DNA of 46,621 bases, from positions 2,377-48,997 of the forward strand of contig JAUNST010000001.1 of assembly GCA_030539095.1 (NCBI GenBank), read 5' to 3'. A program made the translations under genes and the position numbers. The notes under the pieces were generated by a model. It searched no databases, was not told where the DNA came from, and worked only from the letters and a program-made list of their open reading frames with translations. The DNA is from a bacterium (GTDB lineage Bacteria > Patescibacteriota > Microgenomatia > UBA1400 > PJMF01). Below are positions 1,892 to 23,579 of this stretch, piece by piece (positions within the stretch are counted from its first letter, which is position 1; each line of letters begins with the position of its first letter).

Positions 1892-2620
1892 ATGAAAAAA
1901 CGGCGTACGTCTTGGTATAACCAAAAAAAACAACTGCAATTGACAGCTGTTGTTTGCGCTTGGGTTTTGGTCGCTTGTTTTTTTTGCCAACATTTTTTGT
2001 CTGCGCGGACTCAAGTCTTGGGCTTATCTACTAAATTGGACACGCAAAAAATTGTTGACTTGCTCAATTTAGAAAGGGCGAAAAAAGGTTTGGGCCCGTT
2101 GAGCGTGAACGAGCAGCTGGATCAGGCTGCGATTGCCAAAGGCGAAAACATGTTTTCCAATAATTATTGGGCACACGTTGGTCCGGATGGAACTCAGCCG
2201 TGGAGTTTTATTAGTGGCGCTGGTTACGCTTATCAAAGTGCCGGTGAAAATTTAGCCCGCGATTTCACTGATGAGCAAAGTTTGCTTAACGGTTGGTTAG
2301 CTTCTGCCACTCACAAAGCCAATATTCTCAATGGTAATTTTAGTGAAACGGGAGTGGCGGTTTTAGACGGAGAAATTAACGGCGAACCAGTTCTATTAAT
2401 TGTTAATTTATTTGCTCAACCGTTAAGCGCTACTGGACAAGCGCCAGAGATTGCGATTTATCAGCAAGATAATCAGGGTTTAGTTCTGGCGGGTGAAGTG
2501 TTGCCCGTTGGTCAATTAACAGCTGGACGAGCTCAACTTTCTTGGTCGCAATGGCTTTTTGTTGGTGGAGTGCTCCTTTTAGCCAGCGTGATCGTGTATA
2601 ATTTGAGCAAAAGGAAATAA
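1892..2620 (+). CDS. CAP/SCP (YkwD-like) domain protein with N- and C-terminal hydrophobic segments
   Basis: 242 aa. NNYWAHVGPDG...GYAYQSAGENLARDF...GWLASATHKANIL matches the conserved CAP-domain blocks. There is an N-terminal TM/signal segment and a C-terminal TM. Confidence 0.75.
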   Translation: MKKRRTSWYNQKKQLQLTAVVCAWVLVACFFCQHFLSARTQVLGLSTKLDTQKIVDLLNLERAKKGLGPLSVNEQLDQAAIAKGENMFSNNYWAHVGPDGTQPWSFISGAGYAYQSAGENLARDFTDEQSLLNGWLASATHKANILNGNFSETGVAVLDGEINGEPVLLIVNLFAQPLSATGQAPEIAIYQQDNQGLVLAGEVLPVGQLTAGRAQLSWSQWLFVGGVLLLASVIVYNLSKRK

Positions 2621-2621
2621 A

Positions 2622-2990
2622 GTGAAACAAGGTCTTTTTCAATTAATCTATTTTACTTATTTACACAATCAGCTGGCTATTGGTTTAGCGTTGGCGGCCT
2701 TGGTGAGTTTATTTATTTTAATTAAAAAGCCAGCTCGTCGTTATGTTTTCTTTTTTATTGGTTTTATACTTTTACTTTTGCATTTTGAATATCAAAAACA
2801 TATTGTCCAAGATTTAGCCGAACAAACAATTTCTACTTTGTTTTTAGAAGAAGGTCATTATCGCTGGCGTTGGTTCACCAAAGTAACTCTTTATCATTTA
2901 ACGCCGTTTTTGCTTTGGCTCGCTGGTTGGGGCAGCGTTATTTTAGGTATTCTCAATCCTCGCTTCAATAAAAAAGAGAAGCTAAGCTGA
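2622..2990 (+). CDS. Hypothetical integral membrane protein
   Basis: 122 aa with 3-4 hydrophobic helices. GTG start 2 nt after the upstream stop. No recognisable motif. Confidence 0.5.
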   Translation: MKQGLFQLIYFTYLHNQLAIGLALAALVSLFILIKKPARRYVFFFIGFILLLLHFEYQKHIVQDLAEQTISTLFLEEGHYRWRWFTKVTLYHLTPFLLWLAGWGSVILGILNPRFNKKEKLS

Positions 2991-3046
2991 GGGCGTTTTT
3001 TCATCTACCAATTTTATAATTGAAATCACAATAAATAATTGGAAAG

Positions 3047-3622
3047 GTGGATGTGAGAAACTTTTTTAACGAAACAAAATGGCTTTTGGGAATTATTGGT
3101 TTGTTAATGTTGGTAGTAGGAATTTTTCTTTTAGTACGGCCGATCGGAACAATGATTTTTGGCACGATGTTAATCGGTTTGGCATTAATGATTGCCGGAA
3201 TTTTTTATTTTGTTAGTTTCTTTTTCAATCTTAAAGCTCCATGGGCCGGTTGGATGATGATCACCGCCATTATTAATTTTTTAGTTGGAGCTTTGCTTTT
3301 GGCGCGCCCAAGTTTAAGTTTAGATATTATTGTTTTTCTTTTTGGTTTGTGGGCGATTGCCTTGGGCGCTAGCGTTTTTGCTAATTCTTTTGCTGCCCGT
3401 ACTTTCCGTCACAGCGGTTGGGGCTGGCAATTAGTGGGTGGTTTATTAGGAATTTTAGTTGGTATTTTAATTATCTTTAATCCTTTGGCTGGTTTTGTTA
3501 CTTTGAATTGGATAATTGCCGTAGCTTTCATTTTTTACGGTATTGCTAATATTATTGGTGCTTTTTATCTCAATAATCACACTAAAGAATTAAATACACT
3601 TTACAAAGCTCTTAGATTCTAA
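3047..3622 (+). CDS. HdeD/DUF308-family membrane protein
   Basis: 191 aa with six regularly spaced glycine-rich TM helices (LLGIIGLLMLVVGIFLLVRP, WQLVGGLLGILVGILIIFNP), as in DUF308. GTG start preceded by GGAAAGG. Confidence 0.6.
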   Translation: MDVRNFFNETKWLLGIIGLLMLVVGIFLLVRPIGTMIFGTMLIGLALMIAGIFYFVSFFFNLKAPWAGWMMITAIINFLVGALLLARPSLSLDIIVFLFGLWAIALGASVFANSFAARTFRHSGWGWQLVGGLLGILVGILIIFNPLAGFVTLNWIIAVAFIFYGIANIIGAFYLNNHTKELNTLYKALRF

Positions 3623-3652
3623 AGTTTAAAAATAATTTAAAGTTTGATTTTG

Positions 3653-3692
3653 CTCACGAAAAAATCCCTTACTATAGGGATTTTTTCGTGAG
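3653..3692 (+). terminator. Intrinsic terminator, 16-bp perfect stem
   Basis: ctcacgaaaaaatccc-ttactata-gggattttttcgtgag, directly after the stop at 3622. Confidence 0.7.
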
Positions 3693-3713
3693 TAAAATTT
3701 ACTCTCTTGAATA

Positions 3714-3722
3714 TGTTATAAT
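3714..3722 (+). promoter_or_regulatory. Extended -10 (TGTTATAAT) 9 nt upstream of the ATG at 3732
   Basis: atgttataatgaaatta is repeated verbatim at 29887-29903. Confidence 0.45.
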
Positions 3723-3731
3723 GAAATTATT

Positions 3732-4502
3732 ATGTTTGAAGATCAATCACCTTTGCGTAATGAACAAAACAGTGCTCAATCATCATCAGATTTAGACGTT
3801 TTATTGGATCAACAAAAATTGCTTGACCAAGAAGAAACTCCGTTTACTGTAAAAAAGAAACGCCAAGCAAAAATTGCTAAAACTGGTAATGAAGCGACAA
3901 AATTTGTAATTTTTTTAGGTTTGGTACTGATCTTAATTTTAGTTCTTATTTATTATTTTGGCAGTCGACGACAAAACTCTGCCGCCGTTTCTCAGAACGT
4001 TCCGCTTCTGGGGCCTACGATGACGACATTTGATTTGGCTGAAATTTTAGTTCCAGAGACGGAGCCAATTAAAGAACCAACTGCTACTAGCGCCAGCGGT
4101 GTACAATTAAAATTAAGCGAGGTCGCTCTGACTGAACCAGTGAGTATTTCGCCAACGCAAACTTACGTTAATTTTAAAAAAGCCATTAATGAAGTTTCCA
4201 CTTTGGAGGATTTTCTTGATGTAAGTAAAGAATACGTTAATGGCAGTAGCCGCAAAAATTTAATTGGCTTAGAAATGAGTTTAGGTGCCCTTTCTAGCGA
4301 AGTTAAAAATCAAACTTTGGCTCAACTTTTGGACACCACGCCGGCATTGGCGGACTTAAAAACTGTTCAAGAAACTACCACCGGTGACTCGTCAACTTTA
4401 ATTGTGACGACGAAAAATGGTAGCGAAGGCACCATTGAAATGGTACGTGAAGCTGGCGAGTGGAAGATTGCCAAGGAAAATTGGGCTTTAGCCAACGAAT
4501 AA
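3732..4502 (+). CDS. Hypothetical membrane-anchored protein (disordered N-terminus, one TM, extracytoplasmic domain)
   Basis: 256 aa. Polar N-terminus, TM FVIFLGLVLILILVLIYYF, then a ~170-aa domain with no recognised motif. Confidence 0.5.
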   Translation: MFEDQSPLRNEQNSAQSSSDLDVLLDQQKLLDQEETPFTVKKKRQAKIAKTGNEATKFVIFLGLVLILILVLIYYFGSRRQNSAAVSQNVPLLGPTMTTFDLAEILVPETEPIKEPTATSASGVQLKLSEVALTEPVSISPTQTYVNFKKAINEVSTLEDFLDVSKEYVNGSSRKNLIGLEMSLGALSSEVKNQTLAQLLDTTPALADLKTVQETTTGDSSTLIVTTKNGSEGTIEMVREAGEWKIAKENWALANE

Positions 4503-4554
4503 TTTTAATGAAAAAAACAAAATTACCTCGTCAAAAGCTAGGTTCTTTTTTTCG

Positions 4555-4966
4555 TGGAGATGACGGGATTGAACCCGTGTCTGTAGATAATCAACTTTCG
4601 CCTTCTACCAAGATAGTTAACTTTCATGATGACTATTTAAGCGAGTTAACCAACTTTGAATAGTCCTCAACGCAAAATTAGCAGACAAAATAAGCGCGTT
4701 GCTCTCTTATAGCGTTGCTATCGGCTAAGTTTTCACCGCAAGTAAAACGACGATAAAATTTTAGCTTGTAGTGCCAAAACAATTAAGCCACGTAGGCGTA
4801 ATTGGCTGGAGCGAATACGTTTGCTACAGCACCAACGGTGTCGAGTAAAAGTGATTTCGCTTTGCTGACGAATTTATCGGCAGTTAAAGTTTGATCGATT
4901 TTTACCTCTTCGATCAAAGACGCTTGGCGAGCAAGAACCAATTTCTACATCAAAACAAACATCCCC
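4555..4966 (-). ncRNA. ssrA: tmRNA (transfer-messenger RNA)
   Basis: On the reverse strand, 5' GGGGATG (complement of 4960-4966) pairs with CATCTCC (complement of 4556-4562), giving a 7-bp acceptor stem with a G3:U wobble. The discriminator is A at 4555. The adjacent T-arm is ACGGG-TTCAAT-CCCGT (4563-4578). An internal tag frame is present at 4783-4824. CCA is not fully encoded. Confidence 0.8.
4783..4824 (-). other. tmRNA tag-coding frame, predicted tag (A)ANVFAPANYAYVA-stop
   Basis: GCA AAC GTA TTC GCT CCA GCC AAT TAC GCC TAC GTG GCT TAA. It starts GCA AAC like the E. coli tag and ends in a hydrophobic Y-x-Y-V-A tail. The exact resume codon is uncertain. Confidence 0.6.
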
Positions 4967-8038: not shown

Positions 8039-11000
8039 TTAGCTATTGCCCATCAAATAAATGGGCAAATCGTGCTCTTGAGCGTAAGTAAGTAATTCTG
8101 GCGCTTGAGCTGCAAATTCTTGCATATTGTTAGTCAAGCCAACAATTGCTTTTACTTGTGGATTGTAAGCTACAACCTCATTGTTATTAACATAGCCTTT
8201 TTGTCTAAATAAAGAATCTCGGGCTTGGCGTAAAGCCATTTTTATTTGTTTACCAGTTAAACTTTTTTCACCCACTTTAAAAATGCTTTCATCGGCAATT
8301 TGAGCTAGCGAACTCTTATGCATCAATTGTTTAAAAAGTTCTCCGTATTCTTCTTCAGTTAAAGCTACACCTAGCTGGTCAGCTGCAACCGGCTGTTCCA
8401 AAGCTTGAAGAAAATATTGGCGCACATAAATGCGACCGGATTCTTTGCGATAACGTAATCTAGCAAAAGTTTCAAAATCTTTACCGACACCACTATCTAG
8501 ATTCCGATTAGCAGCGACAGCTAAATTTTCTGGTTGAGTTTCTAGTAACAATCCAAAACGACGGCCGCCATAACTGAGTTGCGAATTTTTATCTCCCAGG
8601 CGAACTAAACTGGAGCTTAAAGAGCCGCCATGAGCAATATCAGAAGCATTTTGAGCAATATTGGCCCGATGTCGCAAGTCGTCATTGGGCAAAAAATGAA
8701 TTAAGAAACGTAAGTCCTCAGCTTGACTACCAATAATTTCGCCGGCTTCATTTTTTCCTTCAATAAAACCAAATTGCGCCAATTCAGCTGGATTCGCTTC
8801 GGCGGAAAGATTTAAAACTCGATATTGTTTACCTTTGATAGTTTCCGTCGCTGGTAAATCTTGAAAACTCAGTCTACTGCTATCGGTAAATAAAGGGATG
8901 CCGGTCTCTTGGTCTTCTCTGAGCGCCTCTGCAATTGGTTGCTGTTCTGCATCACTTAAACTTTGCTTGTAAGTTTGATAAAAACTTTCGTTAACACCTT
9001 TTAAGTCGGCGCGCGCAAAAATTTTAGCCATTAAGTAATCTTGTTGACGGCGAAAGCGCGCGGCCACCACTTGAGCTGCCGGCAAATGTTGGCCAAACCT
9101 CATTTCCGTCTTCAATAAATCATCAGCCACCGCTTCTTCTGCTTTGGCAGCGCTATATTCTTTAAGCCATTGATGATTGGCAATTTGTTCGAAAATTTTA
9201 CTCCTCACCAAACTGGAAAGTTTAAATTTTTCTAATAAATTCCGAGCGTAAAGAGCGCTTATTCTTTCGTGTCCTTGATCGGTGACGCCTTCTTTTTTAG
9301 CGATATCATGAAAAAGAATGGCTAACTTCAAACTAAATTTATCTAAATTGCCTAATTGATCATAATTTTCTTTATCTTCAAGTGCGGCTTGCAGCACACG
9401 CAAGGTATGAATATCCAAAGTATGTTCTTGCTCGCTATGTTGAAGTTTACCAATAATATTAATAAATTCCGGAACAGCCGCAATGATGGCATTCATGAAA
9501 TTATCAAATTCTTGATGGCCAGTTTGGACGGCATTTTCTAGAAAAAATTGTTGAAAAATTTGAGCAAATTTTTGTTCCGGCGCGTTAGTCGTTGACTCTT
9601 GCAAATCGAGATTCTTCAGAGTAGGGATACCTTCATAACCAACAATTTTTCCTGCTCCATCAACTCGCGGAGTGATGGTAATTTTTTGCCAAAATGCTGT
9701 TTGTTCTTCCGGGCTGAGAGTAACGTTAATTTCATTAAGCGCGCTCAAAAATTGAGCGCGCGTGAACTTCAAAGGCAAACCGGTTTGGCGATCAAATTGA
9801 CTAAAATCCATTTTTAAAAGCATTTGCTCGTTGCCAGTATTTTTTGCCATCAGAGCTCGGAAAAATTCTTTTTGTGCCGTTAACGGTACTGGAATAACTT
9901 CAATACTTTTTGCTAAAGATTCATTAATTAAATGTGTTAACTCCTCTACGTCAATGCCACGTTCGCTCAGTTGTTCAAGAGAATATTTTTCCCGTAATTT
10001 GCGGAATTGCTTTTGCAAAATATTAATTTCTTCTAAACTCAAACCAATTTTAATTTGTTCAGTTAAGAAATTTTTCAATTCAAAGTTTTGAAAAATTTCT
10101 TGATGTTGCGACACTCCATCTAAAAAATTAATTTCTATTTTAAAGTTGTATATATCAAAAATTAGTTGTCGAGCAATTTCACTATTTAAACTTTGAGCGG
10201 GAAATTTTTCTAGATATTTAACTAAGGTTTCTTTCTCACGATTTTCTAATAATGCTTGAGCTAAGTTTTGATCAAATTGAAAATCCTTAAAAACCTCTGC
10301 GTGTTCTAAGACAGCTTCGGCGCAACCTCTTTTAATTAATTTTTGAGCCATGCCTGATGACAATTCTCCCGTATCAGCCGTATCTAAATTCTCTGCAACA
10401 AATTTCAATATTTTGCCGGCGTCAAAACGAATATCAGTATCATTGCGAAAACTGGAAAAAGCGCTTCCGTCATCATTTTTTTGATAATCCTGATAATCTT
10501 GAACAATTTTTTCTAAAAAAGGTCCATCGGTTTCTGTCTGCCAAGCTTGGGTAAATATTGCCAAATTTTTGAAAACTGCTAATGCATAGCCTTCTTCAAT
10601 TAAAATTTTTGCTATATCTTCTCCCAGTGATTCTTCTGGAAATGAACTTAAATTTTCCGCTAAGTCAGCCATTGATTTTTCATCGCCATACTCGCGAGCG
10701 TCTTCAAGAATTTGCATAGCAAATTCTTGATTGAGAGGTTGGCTAGCAAAAGCATCTTCGTGATGAGCAAAAACTGTCTCCAAATAGCCATCACAAATAA
10801 AAAGATCGGCAGCCTTTTGCGGCAAGGGTTGCCAAACTAAATTAAAACTATCGATAATTTTTTTGGCTTTTTCCAATTTTTCAGTAACAATCTCTCCCTG
10901 AGCATTTTCCTCTTCTTCACTAAGATTCCCTGCAGCTCTCACTTGATCAACTATTTGTAATGCTTCTGCCACTAAATTTTGCAGTTGTGTTTGCAGCTGA

Positions 11001-11581
11001 TTTTGCATCTCTGCATTTAGGGGAAATGCCTTCATTAAGGATCGAACATAAAATACAGGAAATCGCCGATAATCAGTAGCTTCTTCGTTTAAATTTTGCA
11101 AAAAAGTTTGTGTTAATTGTGTTAATAGTTTTTGCGCCTGTGGCGCAAGAGCGGTCAGAATCTCAGAATTATCAAAATCATAACGAAACACTTGCCCGAG
11201 CTCGTCTGCTCTTCTGTTAATATTGTCGTCTAAAACAAGAAAGCGTTGAGTAAAAAGTTGTTCTATTTTTGCGTTTGCTAGTTGATGTGCTTGCTTTAGT
11301 TTTTGAGGATCAGAAAAAAGTTTTTTGAGTTCATAAAGAACAATCCCGTTTGAATTTATCCAAAATTCAAGATAAGATCTTTGCTCCTCTTGTGTCCATT
11401 CAGCAAAAAGTGGTTCTAATTGAGCCAAAATTTCTTGCTCATCAGCCTCAACTTCTGGTTGTTTTTTGTTATCTTGTTCTGCAACTTCGCTTTGAGAATC
11501 CGCAGTAGCGTCTTTTTCAGTTTCAGCCAAACCGAGTTCCGCCGGTGTTAAACCCATTTCGCTAGCGCTCATCTCTGCCAT
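8039..11581 (-). CDS. Giant (1180 aa) cytoplasmic protein of unknown function with a central GlnD-like HD domain and internal helical repeats
   Basis: An uninterrupted 3.5-kb ORF. The HD region is EQEHTLDIHTLRVLQ...LAILFHDIAKKEGVTDQGHERISALYA (HD codons at complement 9305-9310). The N-terminus is acidic and there is no TM or signal peptide. A motif of the form SL..(I/M)A..LI..G.a.AV....F occurs three times. Confidence 0.7.
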   Translation of the reverse strand: MAEMSASEMGLTPAELGLAETEKDATADSQSEVAEQDNKKQPEVEADEQEILAQLEPLFAEWTQEEQRSYLEFWINSNGIVLYELKKLFSDPQKLKQAHQLANAKIEQLFTQRFLVLDDNINRRADELGQVFRYDFDNSEILTALAPQAQKLLTQLTQTFLQNLNEEATDYRRFPVFYVRSLMKAFPLNAEMQNQLQTQLQNLVAEALQIVDQVRAAGNLSEEEENAQGEIVTEKLEKAKKIIDSFNLVWQPLPQKAADLFICDGYLETVFAHHEDAFASQPLNQEFAMQILEDAREYGDEKSMADLAENLSSFPEESLGEDIAKILIEEGYALAVFKNLAIFTQAWQTETDGPFLEKIVQDYQDYQKNDDGSAFSSFRNDTDIRFDAGKILKFVAENLDTADTGELSSGMAQKLIKRGCAEAVLEHAEVFKDFQFDQNLAQALLENREKETLVKYLEKFPAQSLNSEIARQLIFDIYNFKIEINFLDGVSQHQEIFQNFELKNFLTEQIKIGLSLEEINILQKQFRKLREKYSLEQLSERGIDVEELTHLINESLAKSIEVIPVPLTAQKEFFRALMAKNTGNEQMLLKMDFSQFDRQTGLPLKFTRAQFLSALNEINVTLSPEEQTAFWQKITITPRVDGAGKIVGYEGIPTLKNLDLQESTTNAPEQKFAQIFQQFFLENAVQTGHQEFDNFMNAIIAAVPEFINIIGKLQHSEQEHTLDIHTLRVLQAALEDKENYDQLGNLDKFSLKLAILFHDIAKKEGVTDQGHERISALYARNLLEKFKLSSLVRSKIFEQIANHQWLKEYSAAKAEEAVADDLLKTEMRFGQHLPAAQVVAARFRRQQDYLMAKIFARADLKGVNESFYQTYKQSLSDAEQQPIAEALREDQETGIPLFTDSSRLSFQDLPATETIKGKQYRVLNLSAEANPAELAQFGFIEGKNEAGEIIGSQAEDLRFLIHFLPNDDLRHRANIAQNASDIAHGGSLSSSLVRLGDKNSQLSYGGRRFGLLLETQPENLAVAANRNLDSGVGKDFETFARLRYRKESGRIYVRQYFLQALEQPVAADQLGVALTEEEYGELFKQLMHKSSLAQIADESIFKVGEKSLTGKQIKMALRQARDSLFRQKGYVNNNEVVAYNPQVKAIVGLTNNMQEFAAQAPELLTYAQEHDLPIYLMGNS

Positions 11582-13300: not shown

Positions 13301-14317
13301 ATGAAAAATTGGCAGAAAATTAAAAACGAACCAGAACTTTTAAATAATTTTTTTAAGCGAGAAAAAATTATTAATGCTTTGCGCCAATTTTTCCAAAGCA
13401 AAAACTTCCATGAAGTAGAAACACCGCTCTTAGTGCCTAATCCAGGCACAGAACCTTATTTGGAAGTTTTTGCCACCCAATTACAATTGCAAAATGAAAA
13501 ACCGAAAACTGCCTTCTTAGTTACTTCGCCAGAATTGCAAATGAAAAAATTGTTAGCGGCTGGCTTAGAAAATATTTTTCAAATTACCAAAAGTTTTCGT
13601 AATGGCGAAGGCCGCAGCCCCACACATAATAGCGAATTTACAATTTTGGAATACTATCGTGCTAATGCTACTTATTTTGATTTAATGACTGATTTAGACG
13701 AACTTCTGCCCTATCTTTTCGGCGGAGAAAAGTTAACTTATCAAGGAAAAAATTACGATTTATCGCAGGGCTGTTTAAGAATTAGTGTCAAAGATGCTTT
13801 TGCTAAGTATGCGCACATCACCGAAAAAGAATTATTAAATCGTGATCTTTTATGCGCGCGCGCCGCGGAAAAAGGCTATCAAATTGACGAGCATACCACC
13901 TGGGAGGAAGCGTATAACCAAATTTTCTTAAATGAAATTGAACCAAATTTGGGTCAAGATCGGCCGACAATTATTTATGATTACCCGCGCGCGCAAGCTG
14001 CTTTGGCTAAATTGTGCGATGATAAAAACTATGCTCAAAGACTGGAAGTTTATTTAGCTGGCTTAGAACTTGGTAATGGTTTTGGCGAATTAACTGATGC
14101 CGCGGAACAGGAAAATCGTTGTTTAGTTGATTTGCGTGAACGCGAGCGTTTAGGAAAAACAGCCTATGATTACGATCATGATTTCATTGAAGCTTTGGCA
14201 AATATTGATTTCCCTGCCGCTGGCATTGCTATTGGTGTAGACCGTTTAATTATGTTGGCCGCCGACGTTGCCGACATTACGCAAATTACTTTTTTCCCCA
14301 CTACAGAAATTTTTTAA
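13301..14317 (+). CDS. epmA: EF-P--(R)-beta-lysine ligase (GenX/PoxA-type truncated class II LysRS paralog)
   Basis: 338 aa consisting only of a class II aaRS catalytic core (FHEVETPLL, FRNGE...HNSEFTILEYY, GIAIGVDRLIM). There is no anticodon-binding domain, which is the EpmA architecture. Confidence 0.75.
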   Translation: MKNWQKIKNEPELLNNFFKREKIINALRQFFQSKNFHEVETPLLVPNPGTEPYLEVFATQLQLQNEKPKTAFLVTSPELQMKKLLAAGLENIFQITKSFRNGEGRSPTHNSEFTILEYYRANATYFDLMTDLDELLPYLFGGEKLTYQGKNYDLSQGCLRISVKDAFAKYAHITEKELLNRDLLCARAAEKGYQIDEHTTWEEAYNQIFLNEIEPNLGQDRPTIIYDYPRAQAALAKLCDDKNYAQRLEVYLAGLELGNGFGELTDAAEQENRCLVDLRERERLGKTAYDYDHDFIEALANIDFPAAGIAIGVDRLIMLAADVADITQITFFPTTEIF

Positions 14318-16483
14318 TTATTTTTTATTTTTACTTAACGGAAAAATTAAAGTAAAAGTGCTACCCTTACCGAGTTCGCTTTTAAAAGTGATATCACCGT
14401 CATGTTTAAGCATAATTTGCTTGCAGATATAAAGACCTAAACCTGTACCAGTTTCTTTAATTTTGACGTAAGAGTTTTCTAAGCGGCAAAATTTATTAAA
14501 CAATTTTGGAAAATCTCTTTTATCAATTCCTGGTCCAGTATCAGAAACACTAAAGATAGCGCAACGACCTTTCTTCTCACAACGCATTTCCACTTTGCCT
14601 TTGGTGGTAAATTTAATTGCATTACCAACTAAATTTTGCATTACTTCGTGGATTTTGTCTGCATCGCCGTAGATAGATAAAGCTTCGGTAGAACTTTCTT
14701 TACTAAATTTAAAATCTTTATCATTCGCTAAAGGTTGTAAATCTAAAAATACTTGATTCATTACCACATTCAAATCAAGATTTCTTTTATTAAGTTCAAA
14801 ACGATTACCTTCAATGCGAGAAATGGTAAGCATGTCGTTCACCATATTAATTAAACGCTCCGTAGAATCTAAAGCAATTTGGATAAACTTTTTATTTTGT
14901 TTAAAATTCTTTTCTTCATTATTTTTATTTACTAACCACAAATAATTTTTGATAGCCGTCATCGGCGTGCGTAATTCGTGACTAGCCACAGAAACAAATT
15001 CGTCTTTCATTTTATCTGCGATCATTAATTTTTCGTTTGCTTTCACTAATTTGCGCGTAGCTAAATTAATTTTGCGTTGCAGATGGCCGTTAAAATTTTT
15101 AGTGTTCTGGTAAACAGTTGCTCGGTCAGCAGCCACGGCCACTTCCTGCAATGTTTGTTCGATTAAATCGATATCCTGAATAAAGTAAGCATTTTGATTA
15201 AGCTTTTTACCCATAGCCAAAATTCCTTTTGAACCTGAGTAAAGCACTATTGGAAAAACCGCACCATAACCTTCTTTTTTCATTAAGTTAATTAGCATTC
15301 TCTGCTCTGGCAAATTTTCTAAAATTAATTCTTCAAAAATAATTGGACGAGGTATTTCTTGTTTTTGCCATTCCTTTTCGCATAATTCAAAAAGCCTGCT
15401 CGGATCTTTTTCTTCTGCAAAGGTAGAAGTTAAATAAAATTTGCCGTCATCAGTAAAGTCTTCGTAAATTAAACTCCCAGTATTTTTAATCACTCGTGAA
15501 TAAAAGCGTAATGTTTCATTTGTAATTTTTCCTAAATCTAAATCTTGAGCAATATGCGTAGAAAAGATTTTATTTTCTGCTTTCCAGTCCACTCCGTGAT
15601 TAACAATTTTCTTTACTAAAAAATCTTGTAAATTTTGATAAATGTATATCAGCGAAATCGACCATGAAGCTAAGAAAATAAAGGCTAACGGATGCGCAAA
15701 ACGGTCTTCCCATTGTGGTAAATTAAGCAGAAAAAATAAAGCAATTAAAAGCCAACCTATTAAAACAGCGTAATAGAAAATTTTTGCTAAAATAAAATCT
15801 AAACCGGTGAAACGAATTTTGAGCAAAGAATAACCGATCATGCCGGTGATAACTACACTCATCAGCCAGCTGCCTAAATTGGTAAGATTGCTATTATGGA
15901 AAATAATAACTAAGAAAAAATTAAAAAACAAAACGATAACGATCATCACTACAAAAGCAGCCGTTAAATAACTTAAACGAACTTTTTCTAATCCTTGAGC
16001 TTTTCTGGCACTTTTAATAAAATTAAAACAAGCTAAAGAACCGAAAATCAAAAAGTTTAAAGCTGCCACCACAATGCCCCAGCTAGAATTTAAAGTGAAA
16101 CCGTTTGCAGTAAGATTAATGCCGCTAAAGGTGAAGGGCAAAAAATTGAAAATAATATTAAGAATTGCCCAGCAAATGCAAATTGTTTTCCATGGTTTGC
16201 TTAAACGCAATTTTTTGTCAGGAAAAACACAAGAAAAAAAATAGAGAGTGACTGGGATACCAGCCGTCACCACCATCACCAAACGGACAAAAAATAAAGT
16301 TTCTGTGGCGGGCAAACCAGATTGCGAAAAAGCATTGCAAACAACCCAAAGACATATCTGAATAACCAAAAGAAAGAAAAGTGAATTGCTTGGCTGCTGT
16401 CTATTGCTTCGCCAGACTCTATGACCAATAAAAACATCAAGAATTGCTACACTCAAAGCAGTAATTAGACTGATGCTAATCAT
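14318..16483 (-). CDS. Sensor histidine kinase with a polytopic (about 8-9 TM) N-terminal domain and a GAF-like linker
   Basis: 721 aa. The first ~290 aa are nearly all TM helices. H-box VSVASHELRTPMTAI, N-box QNLVGNAIKFT, G-boxes DTGPGI and GTGLGLYICK. Confidence 0.9.
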   Translation of the reverse strand: MISISLITALSVAILDVFIGHRVWRSNRQQPSNSLFFLLVIQICLWVVCNAFSQSGLPATETLFFVRLVMVVTAGIPVTLYFFSCVFPDKKLRLSKPWKTICICWAILNIIFNFLPFTFSGINLTANGFTLNSSWGIVVAALNFLIFGSLACFNFIKSARKAQGLEKVRLSYLTAAFVVMIVIVLFFNFFLVIIFHNSNLTNLGSWLMSVVITGMIGYSLLKIRFTGLDFILAKIFYYAVLIGWLLIALFFLLNLPQWEDRFAHPLAFIFLASWSISLIYIYQNLQDFLVKKIVNHGVDWKAENKIFSTHIAQDLDLGKITNETLRFYSRVIKNTGSLIYEDFTDDGKFYLTSTFAEEKDPSRLFELCEKEWQKQEIPRPIIFEELILENLPEQRMLINLMKKEGYGAVFPIVLYSGSKGILAMGKKLNQNAYFIQDIDLIEQTLQEVAVAADRATVYQNTKNFNGHLQRKINLATRKLVKANEKLMIADKMKDEFVSVASHELRTPMTAIKNYLWLVNKNNEEKNFKQNKKFIQIALDSTERLINMVNDMLTISRIEGNRFELNKRNLDLNVVMNQVFLDLQPLANDKDFKFSKESSTEALSIYGDADKIHEVMQNLVGNAIKFTTKGKVEMRCEKKGRCAIFSVSDTGPGIDKRDFPKLFNKFCRLENSYVKIKETGTGLGLYICKQIMLKHDGDITFKSELGKGSTFTLIFPLSKNKK

Positions 16484-16497
16484 TATTCCATTATACT

Positions 16498-17850
16498 TTA
16501 TTTTGATGTTTTAGCAAGAAAAAACTTACGTAAATCTAAAGAAAAGCTTAAAAACATTGCTTTTAGATTGGTCCATTCCTGAATTTTGAGCTGATCGTTT
16601 TTTTTATCAAAAAGTAAACGCTTGCAATTAAAATTTCGTTTTTCTTTTTTATCAATTAAGTAGCGTAAAGCTTTTTCTGTGGCCATGCCAGCAGCAACCA
16701 AAGTCGTGCTGCCCATTTGCGGAGTGGTATTTTTAAAAGGACTATCAGATTTATTTTTCAAAAAAAGTCCAGCCTCATCGCTGAAAGCATTTTCCAAACC
16801 CACTAAGTAAATAGCAGCAGTCAAAAAATCTTTTTTCAACAAAACTTCCAACTTTTTATTGCTAATGCCCAAAAAAAGATTTTTTCCGGTTTGCAAATCA
16901 TTAGGATTATTAAAATTAATTTCTGCAATTGAACCAACATCTGCCAATTGGATAATTGGTAAAGAATTTTTTTGGGCTATTTTTAATAAATCAATTTTAT
17001 GAAAAATATTATCAATTGCTTCAATTACTAAATCAACAGCTGGATAATTTTTATTCGCAGAAATATATTTTTGAAAATTTTTAATTGAAAAACCAGCCGG
17101 TTCTAAATAAATGATTTGTGTGGGATCTTGAGCGTGAACTTGTCTGGCAAAAGCAATTGCCTTAGATTCATCGTTGGCTACGTCAAAAACGTCATAAGCA
17201 GTGCGATTAAAATTTGTGGCATTGGGACTTTTTGGATCACCAATGGTGAGATAGCCGATACGCGCGTCGCGTAAAATCATATGTGCTGTTACCGAAGCGA
17301 CGCTCGCACCAGCGACAAGAACGTGTGTCCGATTAAAAATACGACGAATTTCGTACCAACCTTTTTGATAATTTTGATCACGATAAAGCGCGCTTCCACT
17401 AGCAACTAAAGATAATTTATAAGTGGGAAGATTGGGAAATTGGACTGCTTTTACAAAATTGTTTTGAGCGTCAAAATAGAAAGCGTAAAAACCAAAATTT
17501 TTTTTATCAGCAGTATATTGATAACTCAAAAATTCTTTAACTAAATACTGGCAAACTGGATCGCGGCTATTGTGAGTGAAAATTTTTTTTAACTGTTGAT
17601 GCGTACTAGCAACAACGCTCACTATTTGGGCGGCGGAAATTTTTTGCGTGCTTTGATTAATATTGAGAATATATGAACGCCCTTTTTTGACCAAAATATT
17701 TTTGGAAAAAACTTCTTCTGCAGTAAATAATTGCGGTCTACCAGTATAAAACGTTCTTGGATGTTGCAATCGTCGGCGAATTTTTTTTAAATCCCAATCT
17801 TGATTAACGATTTTCTGCCAAATTTCTTTATTGCTCAATTTTGATTTCAT
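16498..17850 (-). CDS. E1/ThiF-like adenylyltransferase-fold protein with a ~175-aa N-terminal extension and a degenerate Gly loop
   Basis: 450 aa. THVLVAGASVASVTAHMILRDARIGYLTIGDPKSPNATNFNRT and DLVIEAIDNIFHKIDLLKIAQKNSLPIIQ follow the ThiF/MoeB/MccB layout, but GxGxxG is replaced by AGASVA. Assignment is by recalled pattern only. Confidence 0.5.
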   Translation of the reverse strand: MKSKLSNKEIWQKIVNQDWDLKKIRRRLQHPRTFYTGRPQLFTAEEVFSKNILVKKGRSYILNINQSTQKISAAQIVSVVASTHQQLKKIFTHNSRDPVCQYLVKEFLSYQYTADKKNFGFYAFYFDAQNNFVKAVQFPNLPTYKLSLVASGSALYRDQNYQKGWYEIRRIFNRTHVLVAGASVASVTAHMILRDARIGYLTIGDPKSPNATNFNRTAYDVFDVANDESKAIAFARQVHAQDPTQIIYLEPAGFSIKNFQKYISANKNYPAVDLVIEAIDNIFHKIDLLKIAQKNSLPIIQLADVGSIAEINFNNPNDLQTGKNLFLGISNKKLEVLLKKDFLTAAIYLVGLENAFSDEAGLFLKNKSDSPFKNTTPQMGSTTLVAAGMATEKALRYLIDKKEKRNFNCKRLLFDKKNDQLKIQEWTNLKAMFLSFSLDLRKFFLAKTSK

Positions 17851-18556
17851 AAGCGGCGATTTCTGTGAAATAACGCGGATGAATTTTCATAAATTTTTTA
17901 GTCATTTTATTATGCACAAATTTTGTGTGAGGAATTAATTGGCTGTCAATACCAGCAGCAGTAACAAAATGATGGACATTCTCGCGCATCGTTACTCCCA
18001 GCCACGATTGTTGCGGTTTTTTAATTAGGCTTTGCAAAAAATGGAACATTTTTTGCAAAATTTGCATCTTAAAACTTAAATCGTTTTCTAAATCTAAAAG
18101 CGGATGAAAAGCTAATCGCTCTACTTCGTAAGGAATTAATTTTTTTTCTTGATGCGGCCATAAACAATCTTTTGGTAAAGTAAAAAAAGAAAAAATTTCT
18201 AAATTATCACTCTGCACCAAACGAGCTGTTCCTAAAATTAATTCTTTATTGTTTAACTTAATTTTCGCTACCAAAGTTTTAGTATGGGGAGCGTCTTTAA
18301 TTGCTTGAAAAGAGTTGGCGGTTGACTTTGTGCCGTTGCTATAACGCCAGTTGTAAGCTACTTGCACAATTTTTTCGATGATGGGAAAATCCCGATCTTC
18401 AGCTAAACTTAATTTTATTTTTTTAACATCTAAATGATTAAAAAACGGCTCTCCATCTTTCAATAATTCTTGAGTAATATTAACTAAATCGGAATCTTGG
18501 CTGAGTTTTTTAATTTTGTCCAAATATGTTTTTGATATAGTTTGATAATCGCGCAT
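17828..18556 (-). CDS. Putative GNAT-superfamily LuxI/FeeM-like N-acyltransferase (tentative)
   Basis: 242 aa. LILGTARLVQSD...IPYEVERLAFHP...FVTAAGI resembles the G..RL / E.(S/E)R(F/L)A blocks of autoinducer synthase and N-acyl amino acid synthase folds. It overlaps the downstream E1-like gene by 23 nt. Confidence 0.35.
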   Translation of the reverse strand: MRDYQTISKTYLDKIKKLSQDSDLVNITQELLKDGEPFFNHLDVKKIKLSLAEDRDFPIIEKIVQVAYNWRYSNGTKSTANSFQAIKDAPHTKTLVAKIKLNNKELILGTARLVQSDNLEIFSFFTLPKDCLWPHQEKKLIPYEVERLAFHPLLDLENDLSFKMQILQKMFHFLQSLIKKPQQSWLGVTMRENVHHFVTAAGIDSQLIPHTKFVHNKMTKKFMKIHPRYFTEIAAYEIKIEQ

Positions 18557-18558
18557 AT

Positions 18559-18587
18559 TTGACTTTCTGCTACTATCGTAGTATTTT
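18559..18587 (+). promoter_or_regulatory. Candidate sigma70-type promoter (TTGACT-17 nt-TATTTT) for the acyl ligase gene
   Basis: It lies in the 62-nt divergent region between 18556 and the ATG at 18619. Confidence 0.35.
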
Positions 18588-18618
18588 TATCATATTGATT
18601 ATAAACAGAAGCCTGTCC

Positions 18619-20247
18619 ATGTCAAGTTGCAATTATCAATATCCCCTTAATAAAGTTGAAACTCTGAATAGCTTTCGCGAGCTGATTAATTACGGTGCGG
18701 AAAAATTTGCCCAACGACCAGCTTTTATTTACCAAAATAATGAAGATGAACCTTTAAAAACTGTTACTTATCAACAATGGCGAGATGAAGTGACTAGCGC
18801 TAGCGCTGGTTTAGTGCGTTTGTTGAAACTTTCTAGTCAGAGACGCGAGGGCAAAAAAATTGCCGTCATTGCCGGCAATAGTTATTCTTGGGTTTTAGCT
18901 TATTTTGCCATTGTTAATATTAATCAAGTAGTGGTGCCTTTAGATTGGCAATTACCTGTTCGCGATTTGATTAATGCTTTGCAAAAAGCTAATGTAAGTG
19001 CAATTATTTTTGCGCCAGAAATTGCTGATAAAATTGCAGAAATTAAGGCTGCAAATTTAAAAATTCGCCATTTTATTAGTTGGCAAAAAAATTCCGTTAC
19101 TACTGTCACCTGGGCGCAAGTAATGGATAACGGTGCTAAAGAGTTGGTTGAAAATCCAGATTTTAATAAAGAATGGTCGGTTTATCCAGATGCTTTGTCT
19201 ACGATTATGTTCACTTCTGGCACTATTTCTTCGCCAAAAGGCGTTATGCTCACTCAAAGTGGCTTACTTGCTAATGCTACCGGCATTGCTCAACTTCTTG
19301 ATTTAAATCAAGAAGTTCTATTGTCCGTTTTGCCACTTTTTCATGCTTACGAATTTACAGCCGGCACTTTAACCCAACTTTATAGTGGCAGTACTATTTA
19401 TTATTTACCTGGCGGCTTGCATAATTTTGCTCAAAACTTACAAAAAGTGCGGCCGACTTTATTATTTTTAGTGCCTTTAATAGTGGAAGGCTGTTATTCG
19501 CGCATCGTCCAAGCTTTGCCGGAAAATTCCGAACAAAAAACCATTAATCAAGTGACTAAAAAATATTTTGGCGGCCGTTTACGAAAAATTATCGTTGGCG
19601 GTGCGCCCCTTAATCCGGAAGTAGCGGATAAATTTGAGGAAATGAAAACTACCATAATTCAAGGCTACGGCGCTTCGGAAAATTCGCCCGTAATTGCCAC
19701 TGGTCGCGATCGAGCAAACAAACATAAATCTGTCGGCTTTCCCCTGCCAAACTCAAAGGTGAAAATTGACCAACCAAACGAGGAAGGCATTGGTGAAATT
19801 TTGGTTCACGGGCCAAGTGTGATGCTTGGCTATTATTGTGATGAGAAAAAAACTAATGAAGCAATTGTTGATGGCTGGCTGCACACCGGAGATTACGGTT
19901 ATTTCGACGATGATGGTTTTCTTTATGTGGCCGGAAGAAAGAAAAACGTTATTATCGGTAAAAATGCCAAGAATATTTATCCCGAAGAATTGGAATTTTT
20001 ATTAAATAATCAGGACGGCATTACCGAAAGTTTGGTTTATGGAGAAATAATTAATGATGATGTGCAAGTGGCGGCTTTGATTGTGCCGCAAGCCAATTTA
20101 AATTTGCCGCTAGACGAATTGCAAGCTTTTGTGAGGCAAAAAGTGAAAGCTATTAATCGTAATAATGCGCCGTATAAGGAAATTAAAAAATGGCGATTGG
20201 TAGCTGGTTTACCTAGAAACGTAGTCGGTAAAATTAAAAGAACTTGA
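18619..20247 (+). CDS. AMP-dependent synthetase/ligase (long-chain fatty acyl-CoA or acyl-AMP ligase, FadD-like)
   Basis: Start moved to the ATG at 18619 (MSSCNYQYPL...), because the upstream 20 codons of the track ORF cover the promoter region. AMP-binding motif IMFTSGTISSPKGVMLT, plus YGASENS and GWLHTGDYGYFDDDGFLYVAGRKK. Confidence 0.85.
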   Translation: MSSCNYQYPLNKVETLNSFRELINYGAEKFAQRPAFIYQNNEDEPLKTVTYQQWRDEVTSASAGLVRLLKLSSQRREGKKIAVIAGNSYSWVLAYFAIVNINQVVVPLDWQLPVRDLINALQKANVSAIIFAPEIADKIAEIKAANLKIRHFISWQKNSVTTVTWAQVMDNGAKELVENPDFNKEWSVYPDALSTIMFTSGTISSPKGVMLTQSGLLANATGIAQLLDLNQEVLLSVLPLFHAYEFTAGTLTQLYSGSTIYYLPGGLHNFAQNLQKVRPTLLFLVPLIVEGCYSRIVQALPENSEQKTINQVTKKYFGGRLRKIIVGGAPLNPEVADKFEEMKTTIIQGYGASENSPVIATGRDRANKHKSVGFPLPNSKVKIDQPNEEGIGEILVHGPSVMLGYYCDEKKTNEAIVDGWLHTGDYGYFDDDGFLYVAGRKKNVIIGKNAKNIYPEELEFLLNNQDGITESLVYGEIINDDVQVAALIVPQANLNLPLDELQAFVRQKVKAINRNNAPYKEIKKWRLVAGLPRNVVGKIKRT

Positions 20248-20251
20248 AATG

Positions 20252-20260
20252 TGATATAAT
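20252..20260 (+). promoter_or_regulatory. Extended -10 (TGATATAAT) upstream of the response regulator
   Basis: tgtgatataatgaaatt, then a ~30-nt leader with AGAGG before the ATG at 20293. Confidence 0.45.
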
Positions 20261-20292
20261 GAAATTGAGAGAAATAGCAGAGAGGCGACGAT

Positions 20293-20679
20293 ATGGCAAA
20301 AGGTAAAAAAATTTTACTGGTTGAAGATGAAACTGAGCTGCGCGAACTATACGAAATGCTGCTCAAAGACGCTGGTTATGACGTTACTTCCAAAGCTGAT
20401 GGCAAAAGTGGTCTAGAGGCTTTGGAGGAAGGCGGTTTTGATTTGGTGCTTTTGGATATTATGTTGCCTTTTATCGACGGTTTGGAAATTTTGGAGAGAC
20501 TTTCTGACTCCAAAGATGCCAAGCAACCTACAAAAACAATTGTTTTGCTAACTAATTTGGCGCAAGATCAAACTATTGCTAAAGCCTTGGAATTTGGTGT
20601 GCGTGGTTATATGATTAAGAGTGATTATAATCCGGAGCAACTTTTGCAATCAGTGCAAGATTTTTTGGCTGAAAACTAA
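20293..20679 (+). CDS. Single-domain response regulator (receiver only, CheY-like)
   Basis: 128 aa. KKILLVEDE, the phospho-acceptor context DLVLLDIMLP and a conserved Lys region (GYMIKS). There is no output domain. Confidence 0.9.
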   Translation: MAKGKKILLVEDETELRELYEMLLKDAGYDVTSKADGKSGLEALEEGGFDLVLLDIMLPFIDGLEILERLSDSKDAKQPTKTIVLLTNLAQDQTIAKALEFGVRGYMIKSDYNPEQLLQSVQDFLAEN

Positions 20680-22490: not shown

Positions 22491-23579
22491 ATGTTCCAGC
22501 CTAACTATACCATCACCAACAATCTCATTATGTATTTGTCTCGTATTGAAGCCGCTCGAGCTTTAATTGAGAATTCCCCGCTCGTTCCTGCGTGGGAAAT
22601 GAAATTTCGTAATGAAGCTTTGCAGAGAACAGTCCATTTTGGTACCAAAATTGAAGGTAATGATCTCACTCGCGAACAAGCTAGCCAAGTGGTGATGATC
22701 GATGACAGCAATTTGCGCTCAATTAGCGAAAAAGCTGGTATCGTGGCGCGTGATCGCGATATTCAAGAAGTAATTAATTATCGCAACGTGGTTTGGTGGA
22801 TCGATCAACAGCAAACTAATGGCACAGATAATTTACTTACGGAAAAAACTTTAAAAAAGTTACATAGTTTAACGGTTAATCGTTTAATCGATGATGAATA
22901 CGTGGGCGTTTATCGCGATAAACAAGTGGTAATTAAAAGTGTTGACGGCGAGCAAATCGCCTTTCGTCCGCCGCATAGTACAGAAGTACCTTTTTTGTTA
23001 GCGGATTTTTTCGCTTGGTTAAATCATCCTAGCACTTTACAGATTCATCCGATTGTTCGCGCAGCTATTGTGCATTACCAGTTGGTGAACATTCATCCGT
23101 TTGTGGAAGGCAATGGCCGGACAGCGCGCGCCATGGCCACTTTGGTGCTTTATTTAGCGAAATACGATTTCAAAAAGTTTTTTTCCATGGAACAATACTT
23201 CGATATGGATGTTGAACGCTACTATCAAGCGCTTTTGTCCGTGCAACAAAGCGGCAATCAGGATCTCACCTACTGGCTAGAATATTTTGGCTACGGCTTA
23301 GCAATTGAAGTTGACAAAGTGAAACAGCAGGTGATGAAACTTTCTAAAGATCTTAAATTAAAAGAGCAATTAGGTAAACAAATTTCTCTTTCGGAAAGAC
23401 AAATTATTTTATTGGAAATTTTACATCACCAAGGAGAAATTACTTCGGAAGAAGCTCAACAAGCATTGCCAAACATTTCTACTGATACAATTTTGCGCGA
23501 TATGAAGGACTTAATTAAAAAAGGAGTCATTGAGAAGAAAGGTGTCACTAAGGGTGTACGCTACGTTCTTAGTGAGTAA
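22491..23579 (+). CDS. Fic-family protein (AMPylase-type) with a C-terminal winged-helix domain
   Basis: 362 aa. The canonical Fic motif HPFVEGNGRTAR lies at 23094-23129. An N-terminal inhibitory-helix-like GTKIEGN lies at 22641-22661. The C-terminus (LSERQIILLEIL...TILRDMKDLIKKGVI) looks like a wHTH. Confidence 0.9.
   Translation: MFQPNYTITNNLIMYLSRIEAARALIENSPLVPAWEMKFRNEALQRTVHFGTKIEGNDLTREQASQVVMIDDSNLRSISEKAGIVARDRDIQEVINYRNVVWWIDQQQTNGTDNLLTEKTLKKLHSLTVNRLIDDEYVGVYRDKQVVIKSVDGEQIAFRPPHSTEVPFLLADFFAWLNHPSTLQIHPIVRAAIVHYQLVNIHPFVEGNGRTARAMATLVLYLAKYDFKKFFSMEQYFDMDVERYYQALLSVQQSGNQDLTYWLEYFGYGLAIEVDKVKQQVMKLSKDLKLKEQLGKQISLSERQIILLEILHHQGEITSEEAQQALPNISTDTILRDMKDLIKKGVIEKKGVTKGVRYVLSE

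Follow-up and report, generated by a model that had tools for sequence, protein, structure and literature searches.

Enzymes that make and cyclise N-acyl amino acids have been described in Mycobacterium tuberculosis, where TyzA, which counts FeeM and BjaI among its closest structural homologues, uses lauroyl-CoA to N-acylate tyrosine and phenylalanine, the resulting N-acyl amino acid is cyclised with ATP by the ThiF homologue TyzB, and TyzC, an oxidase of the nitroreductase superfamily, desaturates the product to acyl-oxazolones (PMC10404671). OxzA and OxzB of Pseudoalteromonas rubra carry out the same chemistry with a ThiF-oxidase fusion, and Rv1355c is a fusion of ThiF and FDO (oxidase) domains, a homologue of OxzB encoded beside an oxzA homologue; the biological function of oxazolones and other cyclised N-acyl amino acids has yet to be settled (PMC10404671). 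Here we report a five-gene module from a bacterium of the Patescibacteriota (Microgenomatia; UBA1400; PJMF01), in which the genes of a FeeM-like GNAT protein and an E1/ThiF-like protein lie with those of an AMP-forming acyl ligase, a seven-transmembrane (7TM) histidine kinase and a receiver. The window, by which we mean the whole stretch of DNA that was analysed, comprises 46,621 nt (GenBank assembly GCA_030539095.1, contig JAUNST010000001.1, positions 2,377 to 48,997 of the forward strand). We propose that the module makes an N-acyl amino acid-derived lipid and that this biosynthesis is genetically coupled to a two-component sensor, a reading to which we assign an even chance.

The module is laid out as follows (window positions):

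14318..16483, minus strand: 7TM histidine kinase gene, 721 aa
16498..17850, minus strand: E1/ThiF-like gene, 450 aa
17828..18556, minus strand: FeeM-like GNAT gene, 242 aa
18557..18618, 62 nt: control region from which the GNAT-E1-kinase genes and the ligase gene diverge, read from the sequence, taking ATG 18619 as the ligase start
18619..20247, plus strand: ligase gene, 542 aa from ATG 18619 (open reading frame, ORF, 18559-20247)
20252..20260, plus strand: TGATATAAT, putative extended -10-like element before the receiver gene, read from the sequence
20293..20679, plus strand: receiver gene, 128 aa

The GNAT and E1 genes overlap by 23 nt (17828-17850), and spacers of 14 nt (16484-16497) and 45 nt separate E1 from kinase and ligase from receiver, respectively. 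These values, the 62-nt gap and the sizes and positions of the five ORFs had been given in an initial annotation made from the sequence alone, and they were exact to the base. The ligase probably starts at ATG 18619, which gives 542 aa, the same length as that called in the related locus L004. A sigma-70 motif (TTGACA-16-TATAAT) that matches the consensus in 12 of 12 positions, a consensus match only, is located on the minus strand at 18625..18598 and faces the GNAT-E1-kinase genes. A second promoter-like match (TTGCTA-16-TATAAT, 10 of 12 positions) is found on the same strand at 16490-16517, at the end of the E1 gene and just upstream of the kinase start. The kinase might also have its own transcription from this site, which would fit the inverted kinase gene of locus L010.

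Approximately eleven lineages of Patescibacteria, with varied flanking genes, carry the ligase, GNAT and E1 genes, usually along with those of the receiver and 7TM kinase. GNAT and E1 are fused into single chains of up to 696 aa in P0019, P0020, P0023 and P0025 (the last of which ends early at a contig end), always with the GNAT part at the N terminus and the E1 part at the C terminus, and the same architecture is present in the far more distant protein P0052 (738 aa). At unfused loci, the two genes overlap by 4-23 nt. Loci L001-L004 keep all five genes; they share the flanking genes as well and are therefore a weak test of linkage. The other loci, with the identity of their E1 to that of the window, are arranged as follows:

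L009, 62%: all five genes
L015, 57%: all five genes
L016, 50%: all five genes, with ksgA and ham1 between the two halves
L010, 46%: all five genes, with the kinase gene inverted and still adjacent
L012, 45%: ligase, GNAT, E1 and kinase; receiver absent
L006, 43%: receiver, ligase, GNAT and E1; kinase absent
L005 and L018, 42%: receiver, ligase and GNAT::E1 fusion; kinase absent

The arrangement extends to two deep relatives. In L024, a fusion gene is followed by a kinase gene; identity to the counterparts in the window is 22% for the E1 domain and 34% for the full-length kinase, including the membrane part. On the contig of P0041, GNAT and ThiF are followed, after one unrelated gene, by a HisKA_7TM kinase, a receiver and a PilB-like ATPase. 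Altogether, kinase orthologues adjoin GNAT-E1 in L001-L004, L009, L010, L012, L015, L016, L024, L029 and the P0041 contig. The family is rare: it makes up 23 protein clusters and was found in 10 of 185,579 species representatives and at a single JGI metagenome locus, and its carriers come mostly from animal-gut samples.

The GNAT::E1 fusions, the synteny under changing flanks, the accompanying ligase and receiver, and the recurrence of the trio in deep relatives indicate that the genes are functionally linked. Compaction of the genome could in principle have brought unrelated genes side by side, since this genome is tightly packed and L001-L004 share the flanking housekeeping genes too. This explanation is contradicted by the fusions, by modules that are intact under completely changed flanks, by a kinase gene that stays adjacent even when inverted (L010) and by a trio that recurs at 22-34% identity; the arrangement of the five genes is not a product of chance because many relatives have it between other flanking genes, and adjacency without any shared function is scarcely credible. 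The expectation that the neighbourhood is conserved in related genomes was thus borne out. In addition, the 242-aa protein has a predicted GNAT/LuxI-type fold and the 450-aa protein is E1-like (see below), so that each of the three outcomes that the initial annotation had named as speaking against itself (no such fold, no E1 likeness, no synteny) turned out the other way.

The 242-aa protein was modelled with AlphaFold2 from a nine-sequence alignment (predicted local distance difference test, pLDDT, 89.5). In a Foldseek search of the Protein Data Bank (PDB), FeeM (2g0b) was the top match (E 2.5e-5), and almost all of the 24 matches at E <=0.001 were GNATs. Matches also included LasI, EsaI, TofI, BjaI and MesI, the resemblance to the first four being at the level of the fold (E 1e-4 to 3e-3). 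By the fold of the model alone, the protein is a GNAT that is nearest to FeeM/LuxI-like enzymes. A full HMMER search of 1.84 billion representative proteins with the GNAT family profile yielded 93 relatives; among the 85 that were scanned, six match PF21926 (FeeM), three PF13444 and three TIGR03694 (exosortase-associated acyltransferase). P0111, a distant relative that this GNAT family profile found at E 1.4e-5, matches PF21926 with 28.2 bits (cut-off 27). Within the block PYEVERLAFHP, which we take to be the E-x-x-R block on the central strand of LuxI/FeeM-type enzymes, E144 and R147 do not vary among 13 sequences, and at least 90% of the 85 relatives retain E144. A LuxI-type acyl-homoserine-lactone synthase was considered and rejected; there was no match to Autoind_synth (PF00765), and the likeness to this family exists only at the level of the fold. 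The initial designation of the protein as LuxI/FeeM-like stood at the level of the fold. Based on the model and the remote relatives, we regard the protein as a putative FeeM-like N-acyl amino acid synthase.

Another distant GNAT relative, P0045, is encoded at positions 19-3802 of L025 (also in L026-L028) together with a 242-251-aa protein with a weak Haem_oxygenas_2 match, a 47-aa ORF (MSIPIALDEVVRLGKLRERDVLVRVAFDLGCYRCALVMKQRFDLLCR), an AMP-ligase and a major facilitator superfamily (MFS) transporter. No E1 or kinase gene is visible on the short contigs L025-L028.

Three parts make up the 450-aa protein: residues 1-170 are a conserved N-terminal domain without an assigned type, residues 173-420 form a ThiF-like Rossmann domain, and residues 429-449 are a C-terminal helix that is basic and amphipathic. 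Residues 173-420 match PF00899 with 37.2 bits (cut-off 28.1), and the top NCBIfam model is the Rv1355c family (NF005901), as it is for the E1 domain of the distant fusion P0052. Searches of PDB sequences with the E1 family profile retrieved TcdA (5e-9) and AclA (9egb, 1.5e-5). The AlphaFold2 model (pLDDT 88.6) had as its top Foldseek match AclA of Tenacibaculum discolor (9egb; E 1.8e-12, TM-score 0.75 normalised by target length), followed by UBA5, BubCD, PaaA, MccB and ThiF; there were 243 matches at E <=0.001, and the top 50 were E1-like enzymes. The E1/ThiF-like assignment of the initial annotation was thus upheld.

The adenylation site of MoeB and ThiF comprises an Arg finger, a Lys, a Mg-binding Asp and a ribose-binding Asp. 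The corresponding residues D205, R216 (in NFNRT), K230 and D280 (in EAID) are invariant in 22 sequences of the E1 family and align with those of TcdA, and none of the Cys residues is invariant across the 22 members. The lack of an invariant Cys together with the retention of R216, K230, D280 and D205 is typical of carboxylate-adenylating cyclodehydratases and not of E1 enzymes that form thioesters. A protein-activating or sulfur-transfer E1 (Uba, MoeB, ThiF proper) was rejected on the same ground; moreover, no gene for ThiS, MoaD, an E2 or a JAB protein was found in any locus. A role in defence (CBASS- or Bub-type E1) was likewise rejected: GNAT, E1, kinase and ligase had no PADLOC match, E2 and JAB genes were lacking, and there is no conserved Cys. 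The receiver gave only generic receiver-domain matches in PADLOC.

The ligase matches PF00501 at 1.5e-67 and is, by its sequence, a FadD-type AMP-forming acyl ligase of the ANL superfamily, as initially annotated. Its top NCBIfam model is PRK06187 (long-chain-fatty-acid--CoA ligase; 270 bits, below the cut-off of 476). Full-length orthologues with 39-92% identity, a range similar to that of E1 across the loci, adjoin GNAT-E1 in all loci of Patescibacteria except L029, a short contig with approximately 1.8 kb of upstream DNA, which has no ligase match.

These assignments suggest a biosynthetic route of three steps. By family, the FadD-type ligase would activate a carboxylic acid, probably a scavenged fatty acid, to acyl-AMP or acyl-CoA. 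The FeeM/TyzA-like GNAT, as its fold and remote homology indicate, would then move the acyl group onto the amino group of an amino acid, and the E1 protein, as its conserved residues and the precedents of TyzB, OxzB and TcdA indicate, would adenylate the free carboxylate of the N-acyl amino acid. Intramolecular attack on the adenylate could give an oxazolone (azlactone) or else a lactone or lactam formed with the side chain; alternatively, an outside nucleophile could capture it. A gene for a nitroreductase-type enzyme (PF00881) was found neither beside the module in the loci fetched nor among the ORFs that were scanned from 0.9 to 29.8 kb of the window, a search of loci and not of whole genomes; the sole match at the loci scanned was a 'faint' one approximately 8 kb from GNAT-E1 in Parabacteroides. 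Because no such desaturase is present, the product would not be of the unsaturated tyrazolone type. Homology, conserved residues and gene fusions make the three steps together probable.

An E1-like enzyme may also act on a peptide. The product would then be a ribosomally synthesised and post-translationally modified peptide whose precursor gene is unlinked, with its C-terminal carboxylate or one in a side chain adenylated, as by MccB or PaaA, while the N-terminal domain of E1 holds the peptide, and with a lipid attached by the GNAT, to give a pheromone like those of Agr or ComX. The Foldseek alignments of E1 are long, with approximately 400 columns to MccB and 350-394 to PaaA, which is more than the core domain alone; they leave room for a peptide-clamp-like role of the N-terminal domain, which is strongly conserved and in the model forms three consecutive strands followed by helices. 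The structural deviation from MccB and PaaA, however, is large (root-mean-square deviation 15-16 A). MccB and PaaA, with which E1 had initially been compared, are not its nearest relatives by sequence or fold; these are TcdA, AclA and the Rv1355c family, small-molecule cyclodehydratases, and the nearest solved GNAT makes N-acyl amino acids. Scanning of the region from 14.2 to 20.8 kb for small ORFs gave none that is free-standing, as every ORF of at least 20 aa overlaps a large gene, which agrees with the earlier remark that no precursor peptide gene is evident. The module offers no intergenic space for such a gene, and no small gene is conserved across the loci with differing flanks. Peptide modification is thus quite improbable.

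The kinase matches HisKA_7TM (7.3e-9), HisKA (1.1e-15) and HATPase_c (6.2e-28). A hydropathy scan gave eight hydrophobic segments in residues 1-281, in line with the annotation of the first 290 or so residues as mostly transmembrane, and a linker of approximately 200 aa without domain assignment connects the membrane part to HisKA (H502) and HATPase_c. Polar residues of the membrane part that are invariant across nine orthologues are W46, N50, R67, T73, Y172, N188, Y218 and Y238; H502 and ATPase-domain residues such as N617, N621, D648, G650, G652, G679, G681 and G683 are also invariant in nine kinases. The membrane part diverges faster than the core, but the cytoplasmic linker does so too, and the comparison speaks neither for nor against a specificity signal. 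The receiver domain (PF00072, 1.3e-22) fills residues 7-121 of 128 and leaves no room for an output domain, as expected of the CheY-like protein that had been annotated. Its translation shows the acidic pair E11-D12, D55, T87 and K109, so that kinase and receiver carry the complete residue set of a two-component system (phospho-accepting His, ATPase domain, Asp pocket). The receiver is the most conserved of the five proteins, with 72-98% identity across loci where E1 drops to 42%. Most loci have the kinase and receiver genes side by side, and on the P0041 contig (JGI 3300075153) the second comes straight after the first. The gene that directly follows them on this contig encodes a PilB-like ATPase of type IV pili or type II secretion systems (MshEN and T2SSE domains), a possible clue to the target of the output-less receiver.

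In a fourth step, suggested by gene linkage, the lipophilic product, or the membrane state that it makes, would be read by the 7TM kinase of the same operon, and the kinase would phosphorylate the output-less receiver, which would act by protein contact and not on DNA. Sensing of the product by the kinase, for which the linkage is the argument, is a tentative proposal that we place somewhat on the doubtful side. A self-contained circuit, in which E1 closes a ring (saturated oxazolone, side-chain lactone or lactam), the 7TM kinase senses the resulting lipid and the receiver acts on surface machinery such as type IV pili, is possible and, as a whole, rather unlikely.

The location of the kinase sensor part, which lies wholly within the membrane, would also suit the remodelling of membrane lipids, with an amino-acid-containing lipid made from scavenged fatty acids and a kinase that, like DesK, senses the physical state of the membrane and not a diffusible signal. 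Ornithine and glycine lipids are made by FeeM-related N-acyltransferases (PF13444), a family matched by some of the GNAT relatives, and the basic amphipathic C-terminal helix of E1 could sit on the membrane. N-acyl amino acids may occur as components of membranes, and the cell fraction retained the tyrazolone (PMC10404671). The rarity of the family (10 of 185,579) is more in keeping with an accessory trait than with a core membrane pathway, and there is no linked O-acyltransferase for a second acyl chain. E1-type activation is, to our knowledge, not part of known aminolipid pathways. Taking both sides together, we consider membrane remodelling unlikely.

If the lipid is made but not sensed by its producer, it could be an effector or antibiotic, a reactive azlactone or N-acyl amino acid directed against the host bacterium or competitors, with the two-component system only regulating its production on another cue. 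Such a function has parallels in the induction of oxazolone production in gamma-proteobacteria by sub-inhibitory antibiotics, in the effect of the tyz genes on survival inside macrophages and in N-acyl amino acids that can be antibiotics (PMC10404671), and at L025 the distant GNAT relative clusters with a ligase and an MFS exporter in the absence of a kinase. In the loci of Patescibacteria, however, no exporter is linked and the kinase gene lies inside the biosynthetic operon; furthermore, the receiver has no DNA-binding output, so that transcriptional control of the operon is not obvious. An effector that goes unsensed is, on this evidence, an unlikely product of the module.

Several observations weigh against a sensor-coupled N-acyl amino acid pathway as such. 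The 242-aa protein has no Pfam or NCBIfam match at E <=1, and a profile of 85 GNAT relatives found no match among PDB sequences and did not reach FeeM itself; because direct profile matches are absent, the assignment to FeeM rests on the fold and on transitive homology. The TM-scores to GNATs are modest (0.45-0.62), and SpeG-type acetyltransferases score nearly as well. The nucleotide loop of E1 is an invariant A-G-A-S-V-A-(S/A), one residue shorter than the GIGGVGS of TcdA; as it departs from GxGxxG, binding of ATP is assumed. The N-terminal domain of E1 (1-170), searched alone, matched neither Pfam nor PDB sequences. MenE-type models also reach approximately 200 bits on the ligase, whose substrate is not fixed by profile scores. 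The kinase gene is not beside the module in one clade (L005, L018, L006), and two Parabacteroides species, with an E1 32% identical to that of the window and a GNAT recognised by hhalign with a probability of 98.8%, have the GNAT-E1 pair only, without adjacent kinase, ligase or receiver genes. Recognition of the product by the kinase is a plausible hypothesis.

The genes that flank the module in the window are housekeeping genes (L21, PNPase, phosphorylase, a truncated class II lysyl-tRNA-synthetase-like gene, thioredoxin reductase, thioredoxin, Fic and an AddA-like helicase), and the scan of these genes agrees with the housekeeping context initially described. The class II tRNA-synthetase core (tRNA-synt_2; 338 aa; 13301-14317, plus strand) has no anticodon-binding domain and is EpmA/PoxA-like by size; its gene converges on the kinase gene with zero spacing, the last base being directly before the kinase stop codon, and the same adjacency is found in L001 and L004. 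The region of the GNAT-E1-kinase operon (14001-19000) has a G+C content of 33-35%, compared with approximately 38-45% across most of the window. The low G+C content, together with the GNAT-E1 pairs of Parabacteroides (32% E1 identity), may reflect horizontal transfer; alternatively, it may be just the composition of membrane-protein genes.

A full-length Rfam match to tmRNA (69.8 bits) is located at 4552-4966 on the minus strand, and ARAGORN found no tmRNA or tRNA in the whole window; this tmRNA may be divergent or permuted. The minus strand also encodes a 1180-aa protein (8039-11581) with a weak HD domain (residues 723-810) as its single Pfam match and a 1175-aa counterpart in L004. A gene of the CAP/cysteine-rich secretory protein family (1892-2620, plus strand) and a Fic/DOC gene with a C-terminal helix-turn-helix (22491-23579, plus strand) could be host-interaction or regulatory genes amid the housekeeping context. 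At L010, a diversity-generating retroelement pair (a bAvd-like gene and a reverse transcriptase; 2982-4792) lies approximately 300 nt from the receiver gene. Several of the metagenome-assembled genomes that bear the module (L014, L015, L016, L019) are labelled 'uncultured Pseudomonadales bacterium' and one 'Mycoplasmataceae'; gene content and relatives ('Patescibacteria group bacterium', goat-jejunum bins) suggest that these public taxonomy labels are wrong.

The module ties an enzyme pair without an oxidase to a membrane kinase and a receiver across deep divergence, in very small genomes with few regulators. The arrangement yields the testable hypothesis that the lipid is the ligand of the 7TM histidine kinase, and saturated or side-chain-cyclised N-acyl amino acids are a candidate class of uncharacterised products, whose heterologous reconstitution should be eased by the GNAT::E1 fusions. 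If the signalling reading is true, it would open one of the few ways to learn how Patescibacteria perceive their environment or hosts. It would also mean that ultra-small episymbiotic bacteria communicate chemically or sense their hosts, and it would imply a signalling role for ThiF-type N-acyl amino acid cyclases and possibly a LuxI-independent route to molecules that resemble acyl-homoserine lactones.

Among known systems, LuxM/LuxN and CqsA/CqsS of Vibrio also have the gene of an acyl-signal synthase beside that of a kinase with a sensor made of a bundle of membrane helices. The similarity to the module, a lipid-signal synthase next to a polytopic kinase, is a functional analogy without sequence relationship, and LuxN and CqsS are hybrid kinases with a phosphorelay to a DNA-binding regulator, whereas the partner in the module is an output-less receiver only. 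As an analogy, they are nevertheless closer than the ComQXPA/Agr layout that had initially been invoked. In Agr and ComQXPA, as here, the genes of modifying enzymes and of a polytopic kinase belong to one operon, but the module has neither a precursor peptide gene (its gaps are just 14, 62 and 45 nt) nor a DNA-binding response regulator, which leaves this comparison weak.

As in fee clusters and in the PEP-CTERM/exosortase loci of TIGR03694, an AMP-forming ligase is adjacent to a GNAT that is nearest to FeeM by its predicted fold and has distant relatives matching PF21926, PF13444 and TIGR03694. Unlike the enzymes of those loci, the GNAT of the window is below detection for all their models and has two extra N-terminal helices, and no genes for an acyl carrier protein or an exosortase are found near the module. 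TcdA, the cyclic t6A synthase, acts on tRNA. TcdA and AclA are the closest solved relatives of the E1 protein by profile, and AclA is the closest by fold; all of them retain the adenylation-site Arg, Lys and Asp and lack a catalytic Cys, but TcdA and AclA are single-domain proteins of approximately 250-270 aa, to which the module E1 adds N- and C-terminal parts. MccB and PaaA share with it the E1-like fold and an N-terminal extension, yet are farther from it than TcdA and AclA.

The best match to the module is with OxzAB and TyzABC: the gene of a putative FeeM/BjaI-like N-acyl amino acid synthase is beside, overlaps or is fused to a ThiF-type gene at every locus, and the module E1 and the E1 domain of P0052 score best on the OxzB-like Rv1355c model. 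The module differs from both systems in the absence of a nitroreductase-type desaturase gene or domain from its loci, in the additional 170-aa N-terminal domain and the AGASVA loop of its E1, in the linked dedicated FadD-type ligase, 7TM kinase and output-less receiver, and in its hosts, which are gut Patescibacteria; unlike in OxzAB, the ThiF domain of the fusion proteins is joined to the acyltransferase and not to an oxidase. The initial annotation knew of no described system with this combination, but the pair of GNAT and E1 is the core of OxzAB and TyzABC (PMC10404671). The pair itself is thus a known type of chemistry, and its coupling to a sensor kinase is, as far as a limited literature search shows, new.

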